DNA from: an uncultured Clostridia bacterium
Lineage (GTDB): Bacteria > Bacillota > Clostridia > Christensenellales > CAG-314
Assembly (NCBI GenBank): GCA_947624235.1
Contig: CANQJK010000003.1
Coordinates: 1-50,566, forward strand
Length of the DNA stretch: 50,566 nt
Direction: 5' to 3'
Shown piece after piece: positions 19,613 to 43,048 of this stretch. The stretch's first letter is position 1, and every line of letters begins with the position of its first letter. Both the position numbers and the translations under genes were made by a program. The notes below the pieces were generated by a model. It saw only the letters and a list, made by a program, of their open reading frames with translations. It did not search any database and had not been told where the DNA came from.

Positions 19613-21637
19613 TTATTTTACCAAGGTGTACTTGGTGTCACTGCCAAAGGGCACAAACAGTTGCCCGTCGCCCGTGTAGAACTTGCCGAAAAACTCGACA
19701 TATTGCAATCTTCCGTCGTGAATGTACACGCTGAGTATGCCCATAACAAGGTTGAACATGTGCGCAAACACCAGCACCACGGCGGCGAACACATAGCCCA
19801 CTCCGCCTCCGCTTGCGACCATTCCCGCAAGGGTGTTGATGACAGTGCCCATGATAGCCGAACTGAGCATAATACCGAACACGCGGATGTAGCTCATGAT
19901 ATCGCTGAAATAGTTGATTATTCCGTAGGCGCTGCCGAAACTTTTTATCACTTTGCCCAAAAAGCCCTTTGTGCCCAAACCTGCGCAGACAAGGGCGACG
20001 GCAAGCGCGCCGATGCAAACGTAGAGGCTTATCTGCCCCACGAGGGGAGGCAGTCTCAACGCCTCATAAGGTCCGTAACCTGCCATATCCAAAGCCATAT
20101 TGAATATTGCCAACACAAAGGTCGCAAAGACGATTATCCACGGGAAATCGACAAGCCAAGCGGAAAGGTGTTGCTTGTGCTTTATCTTTACCGCCATGTT
20201 GCAACCTATGCCTGCAATTATGTGCACCACGCCGAACAAAAGGGAGATGATCATCATCACCATGGGATAGGTGCTCGGATCGGGAATTATGCCGTTGTGC
20301 AACGGGTGAGCGGGATCGGGAAACACTTTGTCCCATATGGTGTAGGAAAATACGCTTCCGAACAGCACTCCCACCGCAATTGCGGATATTCCGCAAATAC
20401 CGAAGAGCATAAGCATTGTGCGTATGCCCGTTTTCTGCTTGATGAGGGTGCCTGCGCAAATTCCCGCAACAAGCAACAACAGCCCGTAGCCGATATCCGC
20501 CACCATCAGCCCGAAAATTATAAAGTAAAACACGGACATGACGGGGTTGGGATCTATCTCGTGATAGTCGGGAACAGAATAACTGTTGGTCACAAACTCA
20601 AACGGTTCCGTCAATTTGTTGTTGCGCGTGAGCGTGGGCGCAAATTCCTCGTCGCCTATCTCGTAGAAACACAGCACCATATTGTCCGACACCTTGCCGA
20701 GAGCGTCCCTGACAAGTTGTTCGTCCTCGGCAGGACAAAAGCCTTCCAAAACAAATGTGCTTACGCTCTGCACCACATCGCCGTCGGCGCGAAGTTTCTT
20801 TTCGCAAAGGGAAAGCCAATCGACGTACACTTTCCACTGCGGTATCTCTTCGGCAAACCGCGCAAGCTCGCCGTTGATATCGGCAATTTGTTGCTCTATG
20901 CCGTTGATTTGGCGTTCCAGATCTTCCAACAACACGCGAGGCAACACTTCGGTTGCGATGTTGCAACGGGAAAATCCCAACGAAACGGCTTTGTCGAAAA
21001 AGGAGTTTTCGCTTTTGTGCGCGACAATGACCACCGCAACGTTTTCCGTGCCTTCGCCGATTTGCTCGACGGTGACGGTTTCGTACTCTTCCTTTAACGA
21101 GTGCAAGTTTTTCACTTCGCTTGCGGGAATTTGCCCCAGCGCCACCGAGGCGTGTTCCGTGTCGTGATACCAAACCGTCGGGTGCGGAAGTTCGCCGTAC
21201 ACAGCCAGTTTTGCCACTTCCGCAAGTTTGTTCTGTTTGAGCGCGCCGAGGCGAGCAAGCTCCTCTTTGAGTTCGTCCGCTTTGGACAGCGACCGCTCTA
21301 TCGACTCGGCATTCTGCCCGAAGTTCAGGAAGTAGTCGTAGTCTATCTCCGTGCGAGGGCGGGCAATGCTGTTTTTGGCAACGACTATTTTGCCCTCCTT
21401 TTTGTGGGAGGCGTTATACAAACTTGCCTTTTCTTCCGCATAGGCAATATTTTCCTCTACACGCGCTATCTTGCCCAAAAGTTGCTCGCGCGACTGCGAT
21501 TCATCCGCCGAAGTGAAACTTTGTATATCCGCACTGCGTTTTAACTGAACGCAACCGCACCGAACAATGCTGTCGTAGATACGCTCTCTGTCGCAATTTA
21601 GCGCCAACAGAGTGAACCTTTTCATTTTTACGATCAT
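19613..21637 (-). CDS. ntpI: V/A-type ATP synthase subunit I (a)
   Basis: PDYHEIDP, FGLMVADIGYG, SDIMSYIR and RLQYVEFFGKFY. Confidence 0.95.
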   Translation of the reverse strand: MIVKMKRFTLLALNCDRERIYDSIVRCGCVQLKRSADIQSFTSADESQSREQLLGKIARVEENIAYAEEKASLYNASHKKEGKIVVAKNSIARPRTEIDYDYFLNFGQNAESIERSLSKADELKEELARLGALKQNKLAEVAKLAVYGELPHPTVWYHDTEHASVALGQIPASEVKNLHSLKEEYETVTVEQIGEGTENVAVVIVAHKSENSFFDKAVSLGFSRCNIATEVLPRVLLEDLERQINGIEQQIADINGELARFAEEIPQWKVYVDWLSLCEKKLRADGDVVQSVSTFVLEGFCPAEDEQLVRDALGKVSDNMVLCFYEIGDEEFAPTLTRNNKLTEPFEFVTNSYSVPDYHEIDPNPVMSVFYFIIFGLMVADIGYGLLLLVAGICAGTLIKQKTGIRTMLMLFGICGISAIAVGVLFGSVFSYTIWDKVFPDPAHPLHNGIIPDPSTYPMVMMIISLLFGVVHIIAGIGCNMAVKIKHKQHLSAWLVDFPWIIVFATFVLAIFNMALDMAGYGPYEALRLPPLVGQISLYVCIGALAVALVCAGLGTKGFLGKVIKSFGSAYGIINYFSDIMSYIRVFGIMLSSAIMGTVINTLAGMVASGGGVGYVFAAVVLVFAHMFNLVMGILSVYIHDGRLQYVEFFGKFYTGDGQLFVPFGSDTKYTLVK

Positions 21638-28956: not shown

Positions 28957-29640
28957 TTGCACCAACACAATTGTGACGCGAAAAATTATATCCCCCAAAA
29001 AAGGGGCCCCCACAAAGTTCCAAAGACTTTGTGGGGAAAGAAGCAAACGCCTGACAGCGGTACCATATGAGAAATAAAGAACAATATAATCAAAATCAGT
29101 AAGTCAAAAAAATGTCCCGACCTTGTAACGGTGGGAGTGAGTGTATCCCCTGTAAAATAATCTGCAACGAGGACGAAGTCCGAAGCGAAGCCTTTTTACA
29201 GGGGATATGCGAGCGTTATTCAAGGGCGATTTGCGACGCGGGGTGGGCGGTCGGGGACCTTGTAATAGACAGAGCGAGGGTGTTTCGCGCAAAATAATCT
29301 GCAACGAGGGCGCCACTTTTCCGAAACCAGTAAGTCCAAATATGTCCCGACCTTGTAATAGACAGAGCGAGTATGTCCCCAATCAAAACAATCTGCAACA
29401 AGTGCGAAGCGCGAAACCGATAAATAAAAAAATGACTTTGTAATATAAAATGCTCGTATGTCCACTGCAAAATAATCTGCAACAAGGACGTAGTCCGCCG
29501 TGAAGCCATTTTTGCAGGGGATATGCGAGCGGTATGTTTCTAATAATTTGGGTTACAATGCGCAAAGCACGAAGTGAAGCCGTTTTGATGGGAATATGCG
29601 AGCGATACCGCGAAGCCTTTTTACAGGGGATATGCGAGCG
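28957..29640 (+). repeat. Cluster of family-B interspersed repeats
   Basis: Recurrent AATCTGCAAC (x4), CCTTGTAATAGACAGAGCGAG and GAAGCCTTTTTACAGGGGATATGCGAGCG modules. Confidence 0.75.
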
Positions 29641-30482: not shown

Positions 30483-30682
30483 GTCGCTCGCATGTCCCCA
30501 TCAAAACGGCTTCGCTTCGGACTTCGTCCTCGTTGCAGATTGTTTTGATTGGGGACACACTCGCTCTCGCCGTCACAAGGTCGTTACATTGTTTTGACTT
30601 ACTGGTTTCAGGACTGTCACTCGTTGCAGATTGTTTTGATTGGGAACATACTCGCTCTGTCTATTACAAGGTCGGGACATTT
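30483..30682 (-). repeat. Family-B repeats in inverted orientation
   Basis: 30623-30680 is the reverse complement of 29342-29399 (57/58 identical). Confidence 0.75.
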
Positions 30683-30737
30683 TGGACTGCGGGGGTTTGG
30701 TTATTGTGCTCTTTCCGATTCGGAGCAAGGGGCATTT

Positions 30738-32024
30738 TCAGTCGCGCAGGCAACCTATTGCTATCACATACACGCCGTCGGCTCTTCGGTAGGAAATTTG
30801 TCCGCCCGTCAACACTATCAGCGCCGACGGCAACGCAAGCGGGCATTGAACGTCGCCCTCATTGTGTTGTTGTAGCAGTTGTTGCAACTTCAACAAATGC
30901 TGTGCGCCCTGTTCTATCTCGGTAGTGCCCAGTTTGCACTCTATCAAGGCATATCTGCCGTCTTTTAGGTGCAACACAAAGTCCGCCTCCAACCCATAGC
31001 GGTCGTGATAGTAGGAAAGCGCCCCGCCCATTTTTTGCGAGTACACCTTCAAATCGCGTGCGCAAAGGTTTTCGAACATAAACCCAAAGGTTTTGAGATC
31101 CTGCCAAAAATATTGCGGTTCTACACCCAAACTTGCCACCGCTATGGACGGATCGACAAACAAGCGCTTTTTTCCGCTACGAATAGCCGAAGCCGACCTT
31201 ATTGCAGGGCACCAGGCAGGGATATCTTCCACCACAAAAAGCCTTTCCAACGCATTGATGTAGCTATCCATTGCGCCGACGGAAAGCGTGGCGCCGTTGG
31301 CATTGATATCGGCAAGAATGTTACTGTTTTTTGCAAGCGTGGCGACATTGCGCGCATAGGAGCGCAACAGCACGCGCGTTTTGGAGACATCTCGCTTTGT
31401 GCCGTCCACCGAAGAAATTTCCGTTTGGCAAATGCCGTCCACGTAGTCTTGCGCAACAAGCAGTTTGGCGCGGTCGCTTGTTATATCCAACGATGACGGC
31501 CAACCACCCCTGCAAGTTGCAAATATCAACTGCTCCACAGACAAGTCCGAATGAGCCTCGATCGCGGGCGCGCCTGCAAAAATATCCGTTAGCGAAACGG
31601 TTCCGTTGGATTCGTCCGATTCAAACAAGCTCATGGGGTACATTTTCATGCGCGAAATACGCCCAATGCCCGTGTGACTTATTTTTGTTTCGTCCACGGC
31701 GTTGGAGCCTGTCAAAACAAAAAGACCTTTGCTTTGCGAGCTGTCCACTTCGTGCCGTACGGCGTCCCACAATTGAGGCACAACTTGCCATTCGTCCAAC
31801 AGGCGCGGTTTTTCGCCTGCAAGCAAAAGGGAGGGCTTTGTTTCGCCTGAAAGTTGGTAGCTTGCCAACATGTCGGAGTTTTGCAAGCTGATACTGCTTT
31901 TTGCAACCTGTTGCGCTGTGGTAGTTTTGCCACACCATTTTGGTCCCACTATCAATGTTGCGCCAAATGCCTCCAAGCGCAAACGCAATTCGTCGTCCGC
32001 CAATCGCGGTAGATATTTTTTCAA
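30738..32024 (-). CDS. AAA+ ATPase with C-terminal DUF4143
   Basis: GPKWCGKTT, LLDEWQ, LTGS, FVDPSIA and EADFVL...IECKL. AAGGAG RBS with TTG start. Confidence 0.9.
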   Translation of the reverse strand: MKKYLPRLADDELRLRLEAFGATLIVGPKWCGKTTTAQQVAKSSISLQNSDMLASYQLSGETKPSLLLAGEKPRLLDEWQVVPQLWDAVRHEVDSSQSKGLFVLTGSNAVDETKISHTGIGRISRMKMYPMSLFESDESNGTVSLTDIFAGAPAIEAHSDLSVEQLIFATCRGGWPSSLDITSDRAKLLVAQDYVDGICQTEISSVDGTKRDVSKTRVLLRSYARNVATLAKNSNILADINANGATLSVGAMDSYINALERLFVVEDIPAWCPAIRSASAIRSGKKRLFVDPSIAVASLGVEPQYFWQDLKTFGFMFENLCARDLKVYSQKMGGALSYYHDRYGLEADFVLHLKDGRYALIECKLGTTEIEQGAQHLLKLQQLLQQHNEGDVQCPLALPSALIVLTGGQISYRRADGVYVIAIGCLRD

Positions 32025-32080: not shown

Positions 32081-32172
32081 AAATGTGTATTTTTGTCGTA
32101 ATTTGATGTGTATTTTTGTGGCAAATTGATGTGTGTTTTTGCGGTAATTTGTAGATAAGTTTTGCTGACAAT
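32081..32172. repeat. Four degenerate 23-bp tandem repeats
   Basis: ATGTGT at 32083, 32106 and 32129. TTTTG at 32091, 32114, 32137 and 32160. Confidence 0.75.
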
Positions 32173-32833
32173 AGGTCACTCTTATTCGGAGAAACCTACT
32201 CAAAAGGACGATAAGTGCCACATCGGTACTTGCGGGATTTGTGGTACGGACTTTGAAGAAGAACATTACGGCATGGAGAGTGACAACACTTGCGACGCTT
32301 GCAACTACGAAAACAATGTTGTAAAAGAGTTGAAGACATGGACACTGGACTTTAGTTCGACAGACACTGATTTGATTACACAAATTGGCACTTCCAGTGT
32401 TAATTCCCAAAAAACATTCATTTATGAAGGCTTGACACTTGCTTTCTTAAGTTGTAAAAAGGGAACCGTTAGCAAAAACGGGAATACTACGGAATATAAG
32501 TATCTTTATATGGACAAAACTAATGCAAGTTTTATTGCAAATTCTGAAGCAATAAATGGAATTATTACGAAAATAGAAGTAGTTGTTCCTGCTCAGGCTA
32601 GTTACAAGGCGCGCTACTATATCGAATTGTTATCAGTGGCGAAACTACAATCAGTTACAACAGGACAAGAATGTAAAAGTACAGAAGATCCTAAAAGCAC
32701 ACAACATGCTACTTTGGAAACAACATTTACTATTACAGCAGATGAATCTGCCAACGCCAGATTCTTCAACATATCTAATACGACGGTGGCAAACGGGCAA
32801 ATTAAATCTATCACTATCTACTACTACGAATAA
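32162..32833 (+). other. Silent alternative C-terminal cassette for the giant lipoprotein
   Basis: Open frame with no RBS. Begins I-G-HSYSE, matching I-S-HSYSE in the giant protein, continues with CxxC/His repeats and a domain ending IKSITIYYYE, like internal VTSITIYYE. Confidence 0.8.
32169..32191 (+). repeat. Left inverted repeat (putative recombination site)
   Basis: CAATAGGTCACTCTTATTCGGAG, 22/23 identical to the reverse complement of 34028-34050. Confidence 0.85.
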
Positions 32834-32850
32834 CTCATTATATCTCATCA

Positions 32851-32891
32851 CAATGAAAGAGGGGCGGAGATTTCTCCGCCCCATTTCATTG
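32851..32891. terminator. Hairpin between the two convergent C-termini (probable bidirectional terminator)
   Basis: CAATGAAA-g-a-GGGGCGGAGA-tt-TCTCCGCCCC-a-TTTCATTG. Confidence 0.7.
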
Positions 32892-32917: not shown

Positions 32918-35900
32918 TTATTTAAGAATGTACAGCTGAATGGCTGTTTGCGTGCCACTATAAAATCTAAAGTACGTGGTATCATTGTTATGTTGTAAAA
33001 TACAACCACCTTGACCTTTTATTTTTACATTTCCGTCTGAGAATGTAATAGTAACCGTTCCTTTCGTACCCCAATCGATACCAGTTTTACTTTGGCTACG
33101 ACTGATATAATATCCCGTTTGTGATTGGATCTCGTATCCGCCGGTAACGGCAGTTATGATGAAATACGAATTTTCCACTTTGCTGTCATTAGTTATTTGG
33201 TTGTTGGTGATAGTTATACCACTCACTGCTTGGTCTTGAATTGTCGCATTACCATCAAATATATCTTTTTTGCTTTCACAAACAATTAGATATTTTCCTC
33301 CACTGACAATTTGAGACGTACTTGTAATTTTTTCGTAGTATTCTCCTGTCGGTTCCTCTCCGCCACCGGTGCTACTATGCCCCGGGCATTTATCTTTACA
33401 AACGGGATTCTGACACATCAAATCAGTACATTTGCCACAGTCCGGTTCGGAGCAGACATGTTGACAAACATGTTCAGGCTCCGGTATAGCGATACCTGTC
33501 GGCAATCTGTAAATTACCGGAACAGCATAAGTACCATTGTTGGAATTGGTATTACTTAAATTTGACTTGGAATACGGTCCGAATTTTAACGATATTGTCG
33601 TTTGATTACTTTTTTCTTGGAACAGCAATCCACGACTATTATCTTTAACATTGCAGAAATACTTGTTGCTATTGCTTATCGTCCATTTTGCGTTGTTCTC
33701 CGTTGCATCCGATAGTTTTTGGAAGTTTGTTCCACTATTATATGAGAGATAATCTTCATCGCTAAATTGCAACGTGTATTGTTCTCCCGTATTGCCAAGC
33801 GTCAAAATTGTGAAGGAATCCAACAGAGTGGTTAATTCTTCTGTTCCGCTTGCAATAGAAGTTTCAACACTTTGGAACTTCGAATCCGCAAAATTAGTCA
33901 TTACATGCAATTGTCCACCAGCGGGCGCATAGGCGAATATAAGTCTGTCGCCATCTTGCAAGTCTTCAACGCTTTTCACAAGCGACCAAGTTGCGGGTTG
34001 TGGTGCATTGCAATGAGTGCATTTCCCCTCCGAATAAGAGTGACTTATTGGCTCTTCGCCAAAGAACACACGCTCGCTCAGCATGTCACATGTTACGCCA
34101 TCCAGTTTGAGAGTGTACTTGGCTTGTTCTTTTTCGAACATCACAATCAAGTATTCTGTTGCGTTTTCTTCCGTTGTAGAAATTGTCACTGTTCCCGTAA
34201 TTGTACTACCGGAATCTGTAAATTCGACGGCTGAACTTACGACAGATAATTTTATGTTGCCTGTTACGGTTGCGCCGTTTAACTCAATTGTACCACCACT
34301 AATTGTGATGCCTTGTTGAGCGTTGATCGTGCCTTCTAATTTGACAGTTCCATTTGCCTCAATTGACAATGCCGTTGTCAATGTCAATATGTGATCATTG
34401 GCGTTGATTAGAATTTCTTGAGTTGCACTTGCTTTCAATTCAGCGCCTTCGCCATTGTAGTCCTTGTTGAGGGTGATCGTGCCACCATTTACTGCTACTG
34501 CTTCAAAAGCGGTTGCAAGGCTATCTGTGGAAGTGCTACCTGCGGTGAATACCTTCAAACCATATCCGCAGTCTGTGCAAGGAACTCCGTTGTGTTCTGT
34601 CCAATCTACTTCAACATGGTCACATCCTGCTCTATCGCAATATTGACGGTGTCGGTCGGGGTGTTCTTCGGTGTTATACTCCCATACAAGGTTGTGACCG
34701 AGAGGCTCGCCTTTATTTTGCGTGGTGTCGACTATCCTATCTTTTTGCAACGAGGTGGCGGGAGTTTCTCTGTCAGGTTCAATCGCTTCGTCTCCATTCA
34801 TATGGCCCTTACATGTGTTGCACTGCCATTGTCCGACATATGCGGGATCGTCGCAGGTGGCAGGAGTTGCAGGCAACCACTCCCAGCTGTGTCCTTTTTT
34901 GGGCGTTGTTGACTGTTCAGCATTTTGGCCACAACGTATGCAGGTGCCTTCTATTTTACCATCTTCGGTGCAGGTGGCGGGTGTTTCAACACCCTTAACA
35001 ACTGTATGGTTGCAGACTTCATAGTAGATTGTAATTGAAGTTACCACCGCGTAAGATGAACCACATTTCAACGTGAAGAAAGTATAATTTTCATCGTTTT
35101 TGGCGGTCCATTCCGTAATTGTTCCTTTGTTTACAGAACCCGTTCCGGAAATTTGTTTGCTTGTATTACTAAGATACAAATTCATGCTATTTGTTTTATA
35201 AGCAATAACAATTTTTGTAATGCGCCCGGGGAATGGCTTTGTATTGTAAATGTAACCAACGGACCCTTTTGCTTGCATTCCTCCACTATTTTCGTAAACT
35301 TTGTCTGTATCAAACTCAACACCATTTATCGTGACGGGATCTCCGTCGCCACCATCATACCCACCACCAGTAACTCCGATGTTTGAAACATTCAATGTGA
35401 TGTTTTGAGTAGTGACTCTCACCTCTCCGCAATCGCATTTTTCCTTTGTATATGCACCGCTTTCGTCTTGGAAGTTGTGCACTTGCTCGGTTTTGTAACC
35501 GCAAACACATTCTGCATCGTGATGAACTCTGTCGTTGTCCGCTTTCTTTTTGGCAACAAGGGTGTGGTTCTCGGTTTTTTCCGCTTCGCAACCCTCTTGT
35601 GTGCAAGTGAGTTTGTGTTGTCCTTCGCCATTATCGGTACCGGGTACAACACTCCAATTGTGGTTGTCTATTTTTTCGTATTTGCAATCGTTGCAAGTGC
35701 GGTGATGTCGACTTTCGTCCAGTTCGCTCCAATTGCTCCAATCGTGTCCTACTTCTGTCTTTGTGTAATCACAACCTTCCACCGAGCATGCTACATCGTG
35801 AGTAGTAGCCGTTTTGTTGGAATATTTAAGCGTGTGACCTACCGTTTCGGTTTGACGTCCGCAGATAGCGCACAGTTCATGGTGTCCTGCGTCGCCCTCG

Positions 35901-38900
35901 TTGACTATGCTGTCGTTGTGTTGAATATGTTCGCCGTTGACGTTGACAAGTGCCGTTTCGCACGTTACGCCGTCGCCTTCCAGTTTGAGCGTGTAGCCCG
36001 TAACGGAAGCGTCAAGCGCAAGCGTAGCGGACGTTGTCGTCACTTTGACTTTGGCATTGAGCGTGCCGTTTGTGACGGTAAGCGTTCCACCGCTAACGAT
36101 CACGTTGCCACCATTGACCGCAAGTGTTTTTTTGCCAAGGTCGAGCGTAACAGTGCCTTTGTTGGGCAAAGCGAGCGTTGTCTCCGTACTGTCGCTGAGC
36201 AATTTGACGGTTGCCGTTGTGCCTTCGGCGATCTTTGCAAACGCTTCTGTCAACGACACATAAAATGTCTCTTTGCCGTCGATCGTCACGCTGACATTTT
36301 GTCTGCTTGCACCGCATTTGCACTTTGTTCCGTCTTCTTGGTCGAAGGTGTGTTCCGTGCGGTCGTATTCTTGTCCACAACTTGTGCAATAATTCCAGTG
36401 ATCAGCGGAGTCGAACGTTTCTTTGGTTGTGCAAGCCTCTTCCTTGGTGGCTTTTTCGGTGCCCTCGGCACAGGTTTTGCAGGTGTAGACGTGAACTCTT
36501 TCGTCGCCGTCTTTGTGAACGGGTTTGCCTGTTAAGTCGTGCTTCAATTGCGTAGAGGCTTCTTCGATTTCGATTGTTGTCGTTTGCTCTCCCGTCACGT
36601 TGAGTGTGTCAAGTTCGGGTTGAGGAAGCTCGTTTTTGATTTTTTCAACATCGATTGTTGCCGTGTAGGTCGTGTAAGCATTGCGTTGGCAAGTTGCGTC
36701 CACTCTACTTCCGGCAACACCTTCAACTTCGATCGTGCAAACATGCTCTTCGTCGGTTTCGCAAACAAGGTGCAATATTGCGGTTGTTTCGTTCCAAGTC
36801 CAGCATTCATCGGCAAGCTTCCAAACGTGTCCATTGGCAGGTTTAATGACGGTACTGTCGTCAAGACGGTTGCCTTCCTCGTCGAACTTGCCGTCGCATT
36901 GATCGCACTTGTTGTACCCTATGTTACCGGGTTTGTCGCAAGTGGGTTGCGCTTCGGGCACCCAGGTAAACTTGTGGTTGTGGTCGGTTTTGTATACCAC
37001 CGAAATGGAAACTATCTCAACCTGACCATTAGTGCCAGTTTTACTGTTACCGCCTGCCGCGGAGAACGTTATCGATTTTTCTTCGTCAACAGGATAGGGG
37101 GTTTGGGACTCCACCTCCTCAGCACCATGTGCAAGATAACCCGCATTATTAGTTTTGTAAATAATAGTTACCGAAACCAAAACAAAACCGTCTTTTGCAG
37201 TGATCGTAAACTCGCCGTTGTCAGAGTGATAAATTTTCCAGATTTGCGGTTTTGATTCACTAGATTCTTGTTTTTTATAGGTTCCGGTATACGTTCCCTG
37301 TGAAGCTGAAACGGAAATTGCAGAATTAAGATCGAATTCTGTGTAAAGCGGACTAGGCTTGGTTCCCGTTGTTTCCGTCCATTTGTCTCTTTCCGCAATT
37401 TCTTGTATTGTTTTTGTAACCGTTTCATCACTTGGTACACCGTAGTCTCCCACCGTGATAGTTATGGTTGTTGCCTCCACAACATTGAAGCTGTACACGC
37501 CGTTTTTGTCTGCAACAAGATTTTCACCGTTTATCGTGACAGAAACAAGCTTGCCACCAGTGACGGTCACCTTAAACTTTACTTCCGTGCCAACAGGTTG
37601 CTCTTGCGTTCTCTCAAACGCACCGCCTTCTTCATCGGTGATCGTAACAGTTGAGCCTGCCACCTCACTACTATTGTCGTTGACGGTGATAGCGTAGTTG
37701 GGCAAGGAGTAGCTTTCCAACTTGCAAACGTTTTTGCCGTTTGTTTCGAAAAACTCAAAGCCATAATCCGAAAAATATTTCAGTTTGTCGCCGTTGCCAC
37801 TGATCGTGACTTGGGCACCGTTTCTGATGTCGTTGTATGTTACTTTGCCGTTGAGGTCGATACCGTAACCTTCAAAGCTGTATGCTTCGTCGCCATCGAT
37901 ATAGATCCAAAGGTTATACCAAGCACCACTATCGTTGGTACCGGTTTGTTTTTTGTAGACAAAACCTGTGAACACAAATGTATCCGTTGCCTTGGGTTTG
38001 AAACTGCCCTTTTGGACTGCATCGAGAATATCCTTTTGAGCAAATTCTTGCGAGCACTCGGTGCAGACATTGTTTTCGATCGTGCAATCTTCCGTTACGG
38101 TTTGGTTGCAATCGGGGCATGTGTAGGTGTGTTGCCAATCGTCTGCGTAAGAGATATCTTCACCACGGGTGTGCGCAACGGGAGATTTGTTGTTTCCGCA
38201 TACGGTACATTGCTCGTGATGTTGCGTGTCGTCATCCGAAACAAATTTGTAGCTGTGCTCCACTCCCTTGGTTTCGCCCACGGTGATGTTGGCTTGGTCG
38301 CAGGTGGTGCCTTTGATCTTGAACGTGTAGTCGCCCTGTGGCAAAACAAGCGCACCGCCCTTGTTGTAGACAATTGTGCCTACTGCAAAGGTCGTTCCGC
38401 CCGTAACCGTCAACGAACCGTCTACTTGCAAGGTGCCCTTTTCAAAGTGCACAGCGTGATTTGCAAGGTTTATGGTCACGTTGTAGCCGGCAGGGACGAT
38501 TATCGTGTCTTCTGCCGTACTGCTACGGTCGTGCGTAAGGGTGATAGTATAAGTTTTGGATATGTCTCCGTGCTTGGATATCAGATCGAACGCCTCGGCA
38601 ATGGTCGGCGCAAAGTAGGTGTTGTTCTTGTCGTCTACAATGCTCACTTCAAAGAACTTGTGTCCGCAAGTTGTGCAGAAGCCGTCGTTTGCATCTTTGT
38701 CGAAGCTGTGCTTCTCGTAGCCAAACTGCTCTTCGCAGAATTGGCAAACTTGCCAGTGATGATCTGCGTCGGCGTAGAAGCCTTTTTTCAAGCCGTGAGT
38801 GGCGTCGTGTTTGTCGTCGCCACCGTCGGGCGTACATTCTTCTTCTTTTACCGCCTTGAACTTGCAATCTTTACAAGTCTTGGTGTGATAGCCGTCTTTG

Positions 38901-41482
38901 GTCGATTTTTCGTACTGCCATACGTGCTCGGTCACACCCGTTTTGTGTTCGGGGTTGTATTCGCACTCGTACCAGTGGTTTGTTCCGTCGAACGACCACT
39001 CTTCCTTGTACTTGTGGTTTGTTTCGTCTATTTGCGTTTCGATGTCGCCCCAATCGGCAGGCACCTTGACGCCGTCCTTTTCCACAAAGTATTTTTCACA
39101 TTCGGAACATTGATAATATTCCTTGTTGCCCTTATTTGAGCAGGTCGCTTGCACGGCGGGGTGCTTTTCGCCATAGACGTGCTCGGCAAGGGGCAATGTT
39201 TGCGTAAACGTTTGCGAAGGAGCCGTTACACCACCAACAGTGGCGTCCTTTTCGAGACGGTATTCCACCTTGCCTTGTTCCACGCAGGAAGAAGGCGTGC
39301 GGTGTTGCTCGATCAGTTTTACTTCCACTTGTTCGGTGTGTCCGCACACGTTACAACTGAAATGCGCAGTGGCTGTTTTGAAAGTCTTTTCGTCCCAAGT
39401 CCAATTGTCAAACTTGTAGGTGTGCGCCAGTTTGTCCAGCACAAGCTCGTTGGCTTGAACTTCCTTTTTGACGCCGTTTTCGTCAACAAACAACTTGTGG
39501 CAATCGGCGCATTGATAGTGAGCGTCAGTACCCGTAGCCGTGCAGGTGGGTTCCTGCTTGGGAATGAGCGTGCCGTAGGTGTGTCCCTTGGCAGGTTCGT
39601 CCTCGGTGCGCGTGGCTTGGCAACGCGTGCATGTGAAGGTGCGTGTGCCCGTGTCCTCGCATGTGGGCGGAGTGGTTACCTGACCGTTGTTCCAAGTGTG
39701 GTCGAGTTGCGCGTCGTTGACGGTGACGTCTACGTCGTTGCAGTGCAAGCTTGCTTTTAGCGCGATTTGGTAGTTACCGCTGACGCCGTCAAGCACAAGT
39801 TTTCCGCCGTTGAACTGCACCTTGCCGTCGAGCGTGCCGTTTGTCAACGTTACGTTGGCGTTGCCCTCCACCACAAGACGATAACTGCCCATATTGATGC
39901 CGAAACCGCTCATATTCAACGTGACGTCGATGTCGCCGTCAAATGTTACGTCGGCTGTTGCTCCGCGGTCGTCGGTGAGAACTATCGTTGCGGGGGTTGT
40001 GGGATAGTTTTGCTTGATGTAGTTGAGCGCTTCGGCAAGGTTTGCAACTTGGTGGTCGGTGGCGCCTTCCACTTGCACTATTATCTCGCTGACCTCTTTG
40101 CCACACTCGGTGCATTGCTTACTGCCCGCTTGCAGAGCGTGAGGCTCGTGCGTCAAATCTCCCGAGCAGACGGTGCACTTATGCCAGTGATAGTCGCCGT
40201 CGAACTGCCATGCTTGGGCAGGGGTGCACTCTTCCGTTTTGTTGTAGTCGCAACGGGCGCATGTAACAGTGTGATGAACGCCGTCCTTGTCGGACGTGTA
40301 GATGAAACTGTGTCCGAGAGGCGCGGTGTTTTTGGGCTCGATAAGCGTCGCTCCGCAATCGGCGCAACGCCAACCTTCCGTCTTTCCGCCGTGCGTGCAA
40401 TCTGCGGGGATGGGTTCTATTTTTTGACGATTGTTGTGACCTGTGGCGGGCAAAACGACGGGTTTGTCTATTTGCTTTTCGCACTCCATATCCTCAAAAA
40501 GCTTGTTGCAACGCGTGCACTTGTAGTATGTTTCGAAACCGCTGTTTGTGCAGTCGGGCGCTTTGCCCTCTACTTTTTGCGGGGTGTGTCCCAGTGCGTT
40601 GAGAACAAGCGCGTCTTCGTCAACGGGTTGTTTGCCCTCGTCGAAGAACTGCTTGCATTGCGCGCATTGATAGTACGCTATGTGACCTGCCTGCTCGCAG
40701 TTCGGCTCTACCCTTTCAACCAAACGACCGAAACTGTGTGCAAGCTTGGGCAATGTTTGCGTAAAGCTCTCCGTGCAATCGTCGTTTTGGCAGGTAAACG
40801 TCTTGACGCCTTCCTGTTGGCAAGTGGCTTCCGTCGTCACAACGCCGTTGTCGTAGTTGTGAGCAAGTTTAGGCAATTTTTGCGTGTAACTTTCCGAGCA
40901 GCCGTCGTTTTGGCAGGTAAACGTCTTGACGCCGTCATGTTGACAAGTGGCTTCCGTCGTCACAACGCCGTCATCGAAGTTGTGAGCAAGAGGAGCGATT
41001 ACCAGATCGCTGTCCTGCACGATGTAGCCTTCTTCGTTCAACTTGGTACCGCAGTTATCTTTGCACAGCCAGTATTCCTTGGTGCCTTCGCTGTGACAAG
41101 TGGGATCTACTTGCGTCACATGCGTTCCCTTGGCATGCTGACCTGTCGCCTCGATATCCTCGGGGCGCGTTGCTGTTTTACAAACAGTACAGGTGTACGT
41201 TTTGACGCCCTTTTGAGTGCAGGTTGGCTCCGTCGTCACCTTGCCCTCATCCCAGACGTGGTCTTGCGTGATGGGAAGAGTGCGTTCTTCCGTTTGTCCG
41301 CAGACTTTACATCTGTAAACTGCCGTTCCTGTTTCGGCACAGGTGGCGGGTTTGGTTATCTGACCGTTGTCCCACGAGTGCCCTTTTGCGCAGGGATCTT
41401 GGTTTTCGGAACACGCCGTAACCGTAAGGGCGACGACCGAAACAAGCAAGATCGCGAGCAAAATTCGGATAGCTTTTTTCAT
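32918..41482 (-). CDS. Giant (2854 aa) Cys/His-repeat cell-surface lipoprotein
   Basis: AAGGAG RBS and a signal peptide with a VTAC lipobox. Dozens of H-x-W/Y...ATC...CxxC repeats interleaved with beta-rich domains. Confidence 0.9.
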   Translation of the reverse strand: MKKAIRILLAILLVSVVALTVTACSENQDPCAKGHSWDNGQITKPATCAETGTAVYRCKVCGQTEERTLPITQDHVWDEGKVTTEPTCTQKGVKTYTCTVCKTATRPEDIEATGQHAKGTHVTQVDPTCHSEGTKEYWLCKDNCGTKLNEEGYIVQDSDLVIAPLAHNFDDGVVTTEATCQHDGVKTFTCQNDGCSESYTQKLPKLAHNYDNGVVTTEATCQQEGVKTFTCQNDDCTESFTQTLPKLAHSFGRLVERVEPNCEQAGHIAYYQCAQCKQFFDEGKQPVDEDALVLNALGHTPQKVEGKAPDCTNSGFETYYKCTRCNKLFEDMECEKQIDKPVVLPATGHNNRQKIEPIPADCTHGGKTEGWRCADCGATLIEPKNTAPLGHSFIYTSDKDGVHHTVTCARCDYNKTEECTPAQAWQFDGDYHWHKCTVCSGDLTHEPHALQAGSKQCTECGKEVSEIIVQVEGATDHQVANLAEALNYIKQNYPTTPATIVLTDDRGATADVTFDGDIDVTLNMSGFGINMGSYRLVVEGNANVTLTNGTLDGKVQFNGGKLVLDGVSGNYQIALKASLHCNDVDVTVNDAQLDHTWNNGQVTTPPTCEDTGTRTFTCTRCQATRTEDEPAKGHTYGTLIPKQEPTCTATGTDAHYQCADCHKLFVDENGVKKEVQANELVLDKLAHTYKFDNWTWDEKTFKTATAHFSCNVCGHTEQVEVKLIEQHRTPSSCVEQGKVEYRLEKDATVGGVTAPSQTFTQTLPLAEHVYGEKHPAVQATCSNKGNKEYYQCSECEKYFVEKDGVKVPADWGDIETQIDETNHKYKEEWSFDGTNHWYECEYNPEHKTGVTEHVWQYEKSTKDGYHTKTCKDCKFKAVKEEECTPDGGDDKHDATHGLKKGFYADADHHWQVCQFCEEQFGYEKHSFDKDANDGFCTTCGHKFFEVSIVDDKNNTYFAPTIAEAFDLISKHGDISKTYTITLTHDRSSTAEDTIIVPAGYNVTINLANHAVHFEKGTLQVDGSLTVTGGTTFAVGTIVYNKGGALVLPQGDYTFKIKGTTCDQANITVGETKGVEHSYKFVSDDDTQHHEQCTVCGNNKSPVAHTRGEDISYADDWQHTYTCPDCNQTVTEDCTIENNVCTECSQEFAQKDILDAVQKGSFKPKATDTFVFTGFVYKKQTGTNDSGAWYNLWIYIDGDEAYSFEGYGIDLNGKVTYNDIRNGAQVTISGNGDKLKYFSDYGFEFFETNGKNVCKLESYSLPNYAITVNDNSSEVAGSTVTITDEEGGAFERTQEQPVGTEVKFKVTVTGGKLVSVTINGENLVADKNGVYSFNVVEATTITITVGDYGVPSDETVTKTIQEIAERDKWTETTGTKPSPLYTEFDLNSAISVSASQGTYTGTYKKQESSESKPQIWKIYHSDNGEFTITAKDGFVLVSVTIIYKTNNAGYLAHGAEEVESQTPYPVDEEKSITFSAAGGNSKTGTNGQVEIVSISVVYKTDHNHKFTWVPEAQPTCDKPGNIGYNKCDQCDGKFDEEGNRLDDSTVIKPANGHVWKLADECWTWNETTAILHLVCETDEEHVCTIEVEGVAGSRVDATCQRNAYTTYTATIDVEKIKNELPQPELDTLNVTGEQTTTIEIEEASTQLKHDLTGKPVHKDGDERVHVYTCKTCAEGTEKATKEEACTTKETFDSADHWNYCTSCGQEYDRTEHTFDQEDGTKCKCGASRQNVSVTIDGKETFYVSLTEAFAKIAEGTTATVKLLSDSTETTLALPNKGTVTLDLGKKTLAVNGGNVIVSGGTLTVTNGTLNAKVKVTTTSATLALDASVTGYTLKLEGDGVTCETALVNVNGEHIQHNDSIVNEGDAGHHELCAICGRQTETVGHTLKYSNKTATTHDVACSVEGCDYTKTEVGHDWSNWSELDESRHHRTCNDCKYEKIDNHNWSVVPGTDNGEGQHKLTCTQEGCEAEKTENHTLVAKKKADNDRVHHDAECVCGYKTEQVHNFQDESGAYTKEKCDCGEVRVTTQNITLNVSNIGVTGGGYDGGDGDPVTINGVEFDTDKVYENSGGMQAKGSVGYIYNTKPFPGRITKIVIAYKTNSMNLYLSNTSKQISGTGSVNKGTITEWTAKNDENYTFFTLKCGSSYAVVTSITIYYEVCNHTVVKGVETPATCTEDGKIEGTCIRCGQNAEQSTTPKKGHSWEWLPATPATCDDPAYVGQWQCNTCKGHMNGDEAIEPDRETPATSLQKDRIVDTTQNKGEPLGHNLVWEYNTEEHPDRHRQYCDRAGCDHVEVDWTEHNGVPCTDCGYGLKVFTAGSTSTDSLATAFEAVAVNGGTITLNKDYNGEGAELKASATQEILINANDHILTLTTALSIEANGTVKLEGTINAQQGITISGGTIELNGATVTGNIKLSVVSSAVEFTDSGSTITGTVTISTTEENATEYLIVMFEKEQAKYTLKLDGVTCDMLSERVFFGEEPISHSYSEGKCTHCNAPQPATWSLVKSVEDLQDGDRLIFAYAPAGGQLHVMTNFADSKFQSVETSIASGTEELTTLLDSFTILTLGNTGEQYTLQFSDEDYLSYNSGTNFQKLSDATENNAKWTISNSNKYFCNVKDNSRGLLFQEKSNQTTISLKFGPYSKSNLSNTNSNNGTYAVPVIYRLPTGIAIPEPEHVCQHVCSEPDCGKCTDLMCQNPVCKDKCPGHSSTGGGEEPTGEYYEKITSTSQIVSGGKYLIVCESKKDIFDGNATIQDQAVSGITITNNQITNDSKVENSYFIITAVTGGYEIQSQTGYYISRSQSKTGIDWGTKGTVTITFSDGNVKIKGQGGCILQHNNDTTYFRFYSGTQTAIQLYILK
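34028..34050 (-). repeat. Right inverted repeat (putative recombination site), inside the CDS at codons ~2478-2485
   Basis: Minus strand reads CAATAAGTCACTCTTATTCGGAG, with dyad AATAA-GTCACTC-TTATT. Confidence 0.85.
40742..40987 (-). repeat. Two 123-bp (41-aa) intragenic tandem repeats
   Basis: AHNFDDGVVTTEATCQHDGVKTFTCQNDGC... and AHNYDNGVVTTEATCQQEGVKTFTCQNDDC... Confidence 0.8.
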
Positions 41483-41515
41483 TGCGTTTTCTCCTTATAA
41501 AATTTTGTTTTTTGC

Positions 41516-41716: not shown

Positions 41717-41744
41717 ATTATATCAACCTTTGAAATATTGTCAA
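41717..41744 (-). promoter_or_regulatory. sigma-A promoter for the leader and giant gene
   Basis: TTGACA-16 bp-TATAAT with an extended TG. Confidence 0.65.
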
Positions 41745-41836
41745 TAGTTACAACAATTTTTTCGACAAAAATTTCTGCGACAAGTCCTTTTTGCATAACT
41801 TTGTTTGCGCTAAACATACTATCCGCAGGAGGAATT

Positions 41837-43048
41837 ATGCAAACCAAACAAAATTACAAAGAAGAACGCACCGATCTGATAGTCGGCATACTTGTTATCG
41901 TTGCGGTAATGGCGCTGTTTGTGTTGATGATATCCACAATTGGCAGAAACATGCGAAAATACACCGAAGTGCGCTATTCGGGACAAATCACCTACGACGG
42001 CACCGCTCAACGCGGAAAGCAACAAACTTTTACCTACGCGCCCGCCCGTCCCGTTGCAGATGGGGAACAGGTGATATGGAAGGTAAACGGCGAACAGGTT
42101 TTTGAGGGAGTTTACGCCCAAGACCAACCGATATCCTTCGACTACACTCCCGACCAAAGCGGTAGGTTGGAAATCTGCGCGCAGGCGGGAAACAACATTC
42201 AGACCGCAGTTCTCGATGTGGAGCGTCCGCGCCTTACGCTTACCCTGCCCGACTACACCGTCGTTTACGGAGAACCTCTTCCGCAACTGTCGCCCAACGT
42301 TACGGGCTTTGTGGACGAGGAAGAACAAACAAACTTTTGCTACGACGCCAAGTGCACTATCGGGTGCGACAAACCCGACGTGGGCGTGTACTCTATCCGA
42401 ACGGAAGCCCCTTGCGAATATCTCGACTACGAAACGGAGTGCAGTTTCGGCACCCTCACGGTGCTTCCGCGCGAACTGGCGGTAGTAAACGACTTTGTAA
42501 AGACTTACGATTCCACCAACTATATTCAATCGCCCGACATCCGACTGGAAGGCGTTGTGGATGGGGACGACGTGTATGCGCAGTGCGACAGGCTGTACTT
42601 TGACAACAAAAACGTCGGAATGGGCAAGACCGTGTTGCTGGGGAGCATAGAACTGCTGGGCGAGGACGGCGACAACTACTTTTTGCCCGATTTCGGCACA
42701 GGAACCATTGCTCCGCGCGGAATTGTGCTGGAAGGGCTATCGGTAAAGGACAAGTACTTTGACGGCACCACCAAGGCGCAATTGAACAGCGCAGGCACCC
42801 TCAACGGCGTGTGCGAGGGGGACAGCGTGGCAATTGGCAACATATCGGTGAGCTTTGACGAGGCAGGCGTGGGCAAACACAACGTGATAACGCAAAACAT
42901 CACCCTTATCGGCGCAGACAAAAGCAACTACACCGTTGTGGGAGTAAAAACAAATCAAGCGGAAATTTTGCAAACGGAACAAAACTTTTGGGACAAGTTG
43001 CTCAACAGAGAACCTGTCAGCCCCACCGCGGTAGGCGTCGGCAGATAA
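41837..43048 (+). CDS. Membrane-anchored surface protein with MBG/YDG-type Ig-like repeats
   Basis: AGGAGG RBS and N-terminal TM helix. Motifs VVYGEPLP, KTYDST, KYFDGTT and GADKSNY. Confidence 0.8.
   Translation: MQTKQNYKEERTDLIVGILVIVAVMALFVLMISTIGRNMRKYTEVRYSGQITYDGTAQRGKQQTFTYAPARPVADGEQVIWKVNGEQVFEGVYAQDQPISFDYTPDQSGRLEICAQAGNNIQTAVLDVERPRLTLTLPDYTVVYGEPLPQLSPNVTGFVDEEEQTNFCYDAKCTIGCDKPDVGVYSIRTEAPCEYLDYETECSFGTLTVLPRELAVVNDFVKTYDSTNYIQSPDIRLEGVVDGDDVYAQCDRLYFDNKNVGMGKTVLLGSIELLGEDGDNYFLPDFGTGTIAPRGIVLEGLSVKDKYFDGTTKAQLNSAGTLNGVCEGDSVAIGNISVSFDEAGVGKHNVITQNITLIGADKSNYTVVGVKTNQAEILQTEQNFWDKLLNREPVSPTAVGVGR

Follow-up and report, generated by a model that had tools for sequence, protein, structure and literature searches.

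A two-cassette locus at the end of a giant lipoprotein gene

The DNA analyzed here, called the window, is the complete 50,566-bp contig C3 of G000, the genome assembly of an uncultured Clostridia bacterium (1.66 Mb in 94 contigs, 95.4% complete, 48% G+C). Among public sequencing runs, this stretch is contained in gut metagenomes of rabbits or other animals. The window holds a giant lipoprotein gene, an open reading frame (ORF) of 2854 amino acids (aa) running from 41482 to 32918 on the − strand, and the end of this gene lies in a putative invertible segment bounded by two inverted copies of a short site (Table 1). The segment carries two coding cassettes, as cassette A is the expressed end of the lipoprotein gene and cassette B is silent on the opposite strand.

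The constant body of the protein begins with a lipoprotein-type signal (MKKAIRILLAILLVSVVALTVTAC) ending in VTAC, and is built of repeated Cys/His-rich modules. When the 2854-aa protein was compared with Pfam, no family was found, and at E values up to 1 nothing credible appeared for the whole protein or for either cassette. Cassette B has neither a start codon nor a ribosome-binding site of its own, and its frame continues ...HSYSEKPTQKDDKC... The palindrome between the two cassettes can form a hairpin with a 9-pair stem (8 G-C pairs) and T-rich tails on both strands. It scores as a terminator both ways, so the transcript can end in either orientation. The same hairpin also lies between other cassettes in contigs of two public runs, X5 and X7.

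The C-terminal ~165 aa of cassette B are predicted to fold as a jelly-roll β-sandwich (AlphaFold 2 model from a 10-sequence alignment; mean predicted local distance difference test score, pLDDT, of 82.4). The best matches in the Protein Data Bank were weak, being a pectate-lyase carbohydrate-binding module (CBM), CBM27, CBM15 and gingipain adhesin domains (Foldseek E from 2e-4, template modeling score 0.37-0.52). On this one weak fold match, cassette B may resemble carbohydrate-binding and adhesin modules. The model of cassette A had a mean pLDDT of 52, and its lead from a protein atlas was weak as well (RicinB_lectin_2 in 22% of one cluster, score 0.91).

Homologues of cassette B are rare, as only 18 were found among 1.84 billion representative proteins (HMMER, E up to 0.001). 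Most of these matches are the extreme C-termini of proteins of 760-2423 aa, and one 2184-aa protein attaches its cassette B homologue behind ...DHSYGSD... A word-indexed search for longer proteins containing cassette B gave none, which is weak evidence with a covered range of 383-2000 aa only.

Table 1 Features of the locus, the candidate recombinase gene and sites beside related recombinase genes
Feature	Position	Strand	Description
Left site, silent side	32169-32191	+	CAATAG-GTCACTC-TTATTCGGAG
Right site, expressed side	34028-34050	-	CAATAA-GTCACTC-TTATTCGGAG, read as P-I-S-H-S-Y-S-E
Putative invertible segment	32192-34027		both cassettes tail to tail; 1836 nt between arms
Silent cassette B	32177-32833	+	218 codons, from the site His codon to TAA
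Expressed cassette A	32918-34042	-	final 374 codons and stop of the 2854-aa ORF, from the site His codon
Constant body	34043-41482	-	2480 codons
Palindromic hairpin	32861-32882		G+C-rich, between two stop codons
C60 candidate recombinase	G000:C60:5534-6436		301 aa, Xer-like tyrosine recombinase
Site beside recombinase gene, G177			CTCCAAATAA-TTAATAG-TTATT
Site beside recombinase gene, G281			CTCCCAATAA-TATTAAG-TTATT; second identical copy on another contig
Site beside recombinase gene, G298			CTCCAAATAA-TTGTTAG-TTATT
Site beside recombinase gene, G031			CCTCAAATAA-TTACTAG-TTATT; second identical copy at contig start, sharing 41-nt prefix
Site beside recombinase gene, G309			weaker match to the gene-adjacent site
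AAA_14 + DUF4143 ATPase gene	30738-32024	-	abuts the switch in G000 and G009

An inverted pair of sites read in frame

The + strand at 32169-32191 reads CAATAGGTCACTCTTATTCGGAG, and the reverse complement of 34028-34050 is CAATAAGTCACTCTTATTCGGAG (on the + strand, the right site is CTCCGAATAA-GAGTGAC-TTATTG). They form an inverted repeat of 23 nucleotides (nt) with 22/23 positions matching (96% complementary, one mismatch). An inner dyad, AATAA/TTATT, surrounds the asymmetric core GTCACTC, and is perfect in the right copy and 4/5 (AATAG) in the left copy. The original prediction, made from the sequence alone, had described such a dyad in two copies and a coding hinge HSY, and both are there. 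The two arms share the reading phase I-S/G-H-S-Y-S-E, as H-S-Y is read within ...EEPISHSYSEGKC... in the 2854-aa ORF and within ...LLTIGHSYSEKPT... in the start-less frame of the + strand. On the other hand, the outer arm of the left site (32169-32174) sits in never-translated DNA.

The architecture is also like that of a tyrosine-recombinase site, as had been proposed. AATAR and TTATT arms surround a 7-nt spacer in the layout of a core site. With A/G fixed at −1 and cassette-specific bases starting at +11, the crossover can lie only within 11 nt, GTCACTCTTAT.

A 17-mer pattern of the site has 2 matches in the window versus 0.02 expected, and 0/100 shuffles reached 2. When the whole assembly was scanned with the 17-mer at up to 1 mismatch, the two window copies were the only matches (0 in a reversed control), and a 22-mer at up to 4 substitutions again gave these two sites only. 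In a wider scan, the strict 22-mer occurred at 4 loci in 185,579 species genomes, all belonging to this genus, and a scan of Joint Genome Institute metagenomes with it gave 0 loci. When the arm sequences were searched as words in the literature, the matches listed were unrelated primer or sequence strings.

Incidentally, the + strand at 41491-41512 resembles the site family with 2 mismatches (CTCCTTATAA-N7-TTTTT) and overlaps the ribosome-binding region of the giant gene. This resemblance is probably due to chance in A+T-rich DNA.

Conservation of the site across the genus

The genus was represented by 47 genomes, in which every relative is a metagenome-assembled genome. The 22-mer was found in 9/47 genomes at up to 2 mismatches and in 12/47 at up to 3, with 2 matches of the reversed control in the 47 genomes. 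A separate scan with a 15-mer found 8/47 genomes and 2 control matches. In 10 genomes, 16 unique sites were tabulated, and each lies where a C-terminal cassette joins either the body of a giant ORF or a non-coding flank. Their conserved block is [AC]AATAR-GTCAYNC-TTATTCGGAG, in which positions −5 to −2 and +8 to +12 are invariant or nearly so (15-16/16 sites).

Conservation is confined neither to coding DNA nor to the encoded peptide. Among the eight silent-side copies, mean pairwise identity is 89% in the site versus 29% in the non-coding flank from −30 to −8, which is essentially random and includes terminator-like T runs. Among the six body-side copies, it is 91% in the site versus 53% at −30 to −8. 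The outer arm CAATAG is kept in the never-translated DNA of five species (G000, G009, G019, G002 and G008). The Tyr codon of the site is TAT in 16/16 sites, although genome usage is 39% TAT and 61% TAC, and its Ser codon is TCG, with a genome usage of 17%. Conservation at synonymous positions, on which the original prediction had staked the recombination site, is thus present, and it extends to non-coding positions.

Partner sites have an identical spacer in all five genomes with at least two sites, with three spacer variants among them. The spacer is GTCACTC in the two sites of G000 and the two of G009, GTCACAC in the three sites of G022 and the two of G053, and GTCATAC in the two of G008, where a synonymous change of the His codon has occurred in both partners. 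Taken together, junction marking, non-coding and synonymous conservation and spacer concordance support that the pair behaves as a recombination site, as far as sequence comparison can tell.

Each site-bearing relative has one such locus, as does G000. The suggestion that one recombinase might serve several loci was not borne out for this site family.

Cassette arrangements in relatives

In G053 the locus stands in the mirror state. A 1635-aa ORF there ends in an expressed homologue of cassette B (54% identity over 220 aa), and downstream lies a silent, inverted homologue of cassette A (44% identity over 238 aa). The locus architecture is repeated in G009, G008, G022 and G053. The two-cassette layout occurs also in G009 and G008, and in G008 the cassette A homologue is expressed. 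With three cassettes, the locus of G022 makes a small shufflon. Open frames of 172-227 codons persist in the silent cassettes of G000, G009, G022 (two) and G008.

Assembly breaks fall at the sites. In G022, contig C51 (3687 bp) is the invertible segment, and its ends share exactly 77 nt with the ends of C22, which holds the body, and of C32, which holds the flank. The breaks are at the first base separating the alternative partners. Contig C42 of G019 stops at a distance of exactly 77 nt from where the spacer begins, with its partner contig not found in its bin, and in G014 the body contig runs up to the final base that is shared. This 77-nt geometry would be the expected output of an assembler if the reads hold both junctions, and breaks at this locus are to be expected in assemblies of the genus.

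Sequencing runs were followed in assembled contigs of older runs (4 runs, 3 studies), and such contigs lose rare variants. In run X5, one contig follows the window collinearly, and another, of 1401 bp, has inverted copies of the site as its boundaries around the same hairpin. In run X7, which contains a near-identical strain, contigs leave the window exactly at 32191 and 34049 and enter other cassettes.

Incidentally, at locus L019 (G016:C1, 7810-15105), A-type and B-type modules stand in series in one fixed 2432-aa protein. G016 has neither the site nor a C60-type recombinase, and presents a non-switching alternative for the same module pair.

Recombinases encoded away from the locus

Neither a Pfam search of 33 window ORFs with 150 aa or more nor six-frame genome searches found an integrase or invertase in the window, and no recombinase adjoins the site loci of the relatives examined. 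The original prediction had noted the lack of a recombinase in cis and had called for one acting in trans, which this absence implies; a specific Xer-like candidate can now be named.

Six-frame profile searches for recombinase domains covered the whole G000 genome. They gave four tyrosine recombinases (Phage_integrase), on contigs C60, C27, C22 and C6, and no serine recombinase, with 0 matches of Resolvase (PF00239) when the control search was positive in 12/14 genomes. IS110/Piv-type matches were also 0. All four tyrosine recombinases score below the NCBIfam equivalog cut-offs.

The C60 protein matches PF00589 at 146 bits, above the cut-off, and the XerC and XerD models at 217 and 208 bits, below the equivalog cut-offs. 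It keeps the R..HxxR..H..Y stretches, as its alignment to XerA shows TGIRIGE, HYLRHTF and GH...RYT. Among solved structures, XerA and XerD are the nearest to it. The C60 type (at least 67% identity) is present in 10/47 genomes, namely in 8/9 site-bearing genomes and in 2/38 others (G045 and G005, the latter having a single 3-mismatch site).

The remaining three differ in distribution. The C27 type is XerS-like and occurs as a single copy in 43/47 genomes at 73-89% identity; we take it to be the housekeeping Xer. The integrase-like C22 type was rejected as a candidate on its sporadic distribution, unrelated to the site. The C6 type (at least 42% identity) is found in 25/47 genomes, often in multiple copies, and is the second candidate for the enzyme.

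A different 21-nt inverted repeat with 2 mismatches, 144 nt apart, lies on the C6 contig (G000:C6:42249-42269 and 42414-42434). It is ~220 nt downstream of the C6-type recombinase gene, at the start of a 748-aa ORF, and a second giant, Cys-rich lipoprotein gene (>1765 aa) comes after this ORF. The C6 locus could be a small inverton that carries an invertase of its own.

A dif-like motif, [AT]TTATTCGCAAAA, found ~40-60 nt upstream of the XerS-like gene (loci L050-L079), was considered and rejected, as its dyad is not conserved genus-wide and its geometry is unlike that of the window site. Several genomes have an imperfect inverted partner (TTTACGAATAG) 8 nt after this motif, overlapping the promoter. 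The motif could be an operator or a dif-like site.

Sites of the same type beside C60-family genes

Homologues of the C60 protein were found in 8 of 294 other-genus genomes sampled in the same order, at 44-60% identity. For 5/8 of them, a site that shares the arms and has a spacer of 7 nt lies within ~350 nt of the recombinase gene, in most cases 58-80 nt ahead of the recombinase start (Table 1). Within the genus, all three C60 paralogues (47-49% identity; G017, G046 and G007) have such a gene-adjacent site. Thus, a site of the type CTCCNAATAA-N7-TTATT stands next to the gene at 8/11 non-orthologous C60 homologue loci, and at 0/5 of the C60 orthologue loci examined (G000, G002, G054, G045 and G005). 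In G000, the generalized pattern at up to 1 mismatch again matches the two window sites only, when the reversed control gives 1 match.

In other genera, the arm places GGAG a few bases ahead of ATG, like a ribosome-binding site. In the window, the GGAG-containing arm is read as the codons TCG GAG. The non-orthologous homologues link the site type to the C60 family more strongly than co-occurrence does.

Proposed mechanism and its alternatives

We regard the locus as probably a shufflon-like, two-cassette programmed inversion that alters the lipoprotein gene, driven by an unlinked recombinase that is most likely the Xer-like C60 protein. The 2854-aa lipoprotein would be anchored to the membrane, with its 2480-aa constant body carrying a distal C-terminal tip encoded in the 1.8-kb invertible segment. 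A site-specific recombinase would pair the two inverted 22-23-bp sites and exchange strands within the 11-nt stretch, most simply across the 7-nt spacer GTCACTC, and the segment would flip. As both sites are in the same reading phase (H-S-Y), the flip would join cassette B (218 aa) to the body, for a predicted product of 2698 aa, and would silence cassette A (374 aa). The shared hairpin would terminate transcription in both states. The enzyme would most likely be the unlinked C60 recombinase, of a family that appears to use CTCCNAATAA-N7-TTATT, the window site on the other strand. If so, the 223-aa 'orphan ORF' should not be annotated as an independent gene, and the giant gene has two alternative products, whose tips may differ in the ligands they bind. 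The proposal couples an unlinked recombinase to its target in concrete terms that can be tested.

A number of observations weigh against this proposal. The inverted junction of the window segment was in no contig of the four runs, and the spanning contigs in X1 (left site only), X5 and X6 are all in the orientation of the window, whose own contig was assembled straight through both sites. As for the enzyme, G014 (91% complete) has a site but no C60-type match, and G045 and G005 have a C60-type recombinase but lack an intact pair of sites. In a single-gene tree of poor resolution, with good support for 4/27 inner branches, every C60 carrier belongs to one subclade of 15 rows. Shared ancestry and the co-occurrence of C60 and the site are inseparable there, with 1 independent pair on well-supported branches (sign test p = 1), and we claim no statistical support from the co-occurrence. 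In addition, the sites that adjoin recombinase genes in other genera could be used by mobile elements for attachment and not for inversion. The C6 type was found in 9/9 site genomes, and small serine recombinases occur elsewhere in the genomes of 5/5 relatives tested; with G000 at 95.4% completeness, such a gene could have been missed in its assembly.

The last two points would fit a real switch worked by another enzyme, be it the C6-type recombinase, whose gene in G000 lies 2.5 kb upstream of the second giant lipoprotein gene, the XerS-like protein, universal in the genus, acting as a hijacked host Xer, or a serine invertase missed in assembly. We consider this unlikely. The C6 type occurs also in 16/38 site-free genomes and has its own, different inverted repeat, and the window arms match those beside C60-family genes. 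G000 gave no Resolvase match, and with a 7-nt spacer the dyad axis falls on a base, unlike the 2-bp crossover that passages of PMC5357621 give for serine recombinases. The single orientation, seen in three samples, and the unbroken assembly would rather fit a relic that inverted during the evolution of the genus and is now frozen or rarely flips, its silent cassette serving as a reservoir. The A/G mismatch adjoining the spacer has the same tendency. This is less likely still, as G009 and G008 retain the same A/G difference, which falls outside the crossover window. In addition, the 218-codon frame of the silent cassette and the C60 gene are both intact, and the spacer and inner arm are perfect in both sites.

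Two further explanations dispense with a dedicated enzyme or with inversion. The repeat overlaps a module-boundary motif, H-S/T-Y/W/F, that recurs in these proteins, and RecA-dependent recombination or gene conversion might act at such a short shared coding motif. This is very improbable, however, with a shared stretch of only 23 nt, an outer arm conserved in never-translated DNA, invariant synonymous positions, and the same arms and spacer length beside recombinase genes of other genera, where they are non-coding. H-S-Y-S-E is coding in both copies, as it would be if a conserved peptide motif were all there is and the + strand frame were a decayed duplicate. Such a coding coincidence is the least credible of all, given the chance expectation above, the conservation of open silent frames in five cassettes, the swapped arrangement in G053 and the contigs breaking exactly at the sites.

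With a site-specific inversion by the C60 recombinase as the preferred reading, a wider scheme can be put forward more tentatively, at somewhat less than even chances. An accessory Xer-like family in this order, undescribed so far, may use CTCCNAATAA-N7-TTATT sites, which elsewhere are gene-adjacent with the GGAG arm at the position of a ribosome-binding site. In one rabbit-gut genus, the site may have moved in frame (Tyr-Ser-Glu) and become uncoupled from the enzyme gene, so that a single dedicated recombinase acting in trans would shuffle the ligand-binding tip of a giant lipoprotein. This suggests that one site type may serve beside a gene start in some genera and within a reading frame in another.

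Comparison with known systems

In the R64 shufflon, the Rci recombinase acts at sfx sites to vary the PilV tip adhesin, and rci lies beside its shufflon. The window locus resembles it in that inversion between short sites in a coding region would swap C-terminal segments of a surface protein, with a tyrosine recombinase at asymmetric sites and several cassettes in some relatives (three in G022). The differences are that the recombinase here is unlinked, the site and the target protein are unrelated, and the locus is chromosomal in uncultured Clostridia; the resemblance to Rci/sfx is functional only. The PilV shufflon is named in passages of PMC9881135, whose references include Komano's review.

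According to passages of PMC9881135 and 10.1101/2023.03.11.532203, programmed inversions number thousands of predicted cases, with the recombinase usually nearby but not so in a few regions, and the enriched families are mainly restriction-modification, BREX, PilV, tail-fibre and SusD-type. Matching invertases to their targets is described as an open problem (10.1101/2023.03.11.532203). In the gene-altering programmed inversions of Milman et al. (NAR 2023) and the 'partial intergenic invertons' of Chanin et al., the inverted repeats lie across a gene and a silent copy downstream of it, a layout shared here, and alternative alleles result. In passages of PMC9881135 and 10.1101/2023.03.11.532203, supplements aside, neither the Cys-rich giant lipoprotein family nor the window site is mentioned. 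What appears new here, by sequence comparison, is the target protein family, the site, the linked Xer-like family and the placing within a reading frame of a site type that stands at gene starts elsewhere. It would also place surface-protein tip variation in a lineage of uncultured gut Clostridia, known from metagenome-assembled genomes alone. Of the features of a programmed inversion, the locus has repeats overlapping coding sequence and an in-frame, promoter-less, inverted alternative gene part; the recombinase in or beside the region, usual but not obligatory, was not found.

HvsR of Mycoplasma pulmonis (vsa/hsd) and RecV of Clostridioides difficile are unlinked tyrosine recombinases acting in trans on several loci. 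They share with the proposed system an unlinked tyrosine recombinase on inverted sites, and vsa likewise joins silent 3′ parts to a single expression site. Whereas these enzymes serve several loci, there is one site-bearing locus per genome here. In the reference list of PMC9881135, HvsR appears as number 14.

Phage Mu Gin, P1 Cin and Salmonella Hin are linked serine invertases with a 2-bp crossover. The Mu G segment and its Cin and Hin counterparts are alike in that inversion swaps the C-terminal, receptor-binding part of a fibre between two convergent cassettes. They differ in that no Resolvase-domain match, as the usually adjacent invertase of that class would give, was found in G000, and in that the spacer length here is odd.

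The C60 candidate is closest to XerA, XerD and XerC. In passages of PMC5357621, dif-type sites have partially dyad-symmetric arms around a 6-8-bp central region (dif being 11+6+11 bp and cer having an 8-bp central region), and xerS adjoins difSL. The window site likewise has two partial-dyad arms around a central region, and the sites of other genera adjoin the recombinase gene, as difSL does. In contrast to a dif system, the C60 type occurs in 10/47 genomes versus 43/47 for the XerS-like type, and its sites are inverted within a gene. The window system is not one of chromosome dimer resolution.

Neighboring genes and repeats

The AAA_14 and DUF4143 ATPase gene beside the left site has a paralogue within the invertible segment of G022. 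It was rejected as an obligatory recombination factor, as the loci of G053, G002 and G054 are without an ATPase. Between its start and the left site, three tandem 23-bp repeats (ATGTGTATTTTTGTCGTAATTTG and variants) lie at 32083-32151. A stretch like them precedes the silent site in G009, where the ATPase is also present, and is absent in the species without the ATPase. The repeats are possibly an operator of the ATPase gene.

On the other side, the divergent neighbor of the giant gene (41738-43048, +) has YDG and MBG_2 domains, which suggests another predicted surface protein.

Two inverted copies of a repeat resembling repetitive extragenic palindromes or miniature inverted-repeat transposable elements (44-63 nt stretches, 85-98% alike) flank a TauE-family gene at 29154-29404 and 30503-30683. 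The repeat contains ...AATCTGCAACGAG...GCGAAGCC.TTTT..., and its family is dispersed over many contigs (C21, C93, C14, C15, C25 and C23). Elsewhere in the genome, long composite inverted repeats with arms of 27-43 nt (G000:C13:18383-18592 and 20351-20641) surround ~1.8 kb.

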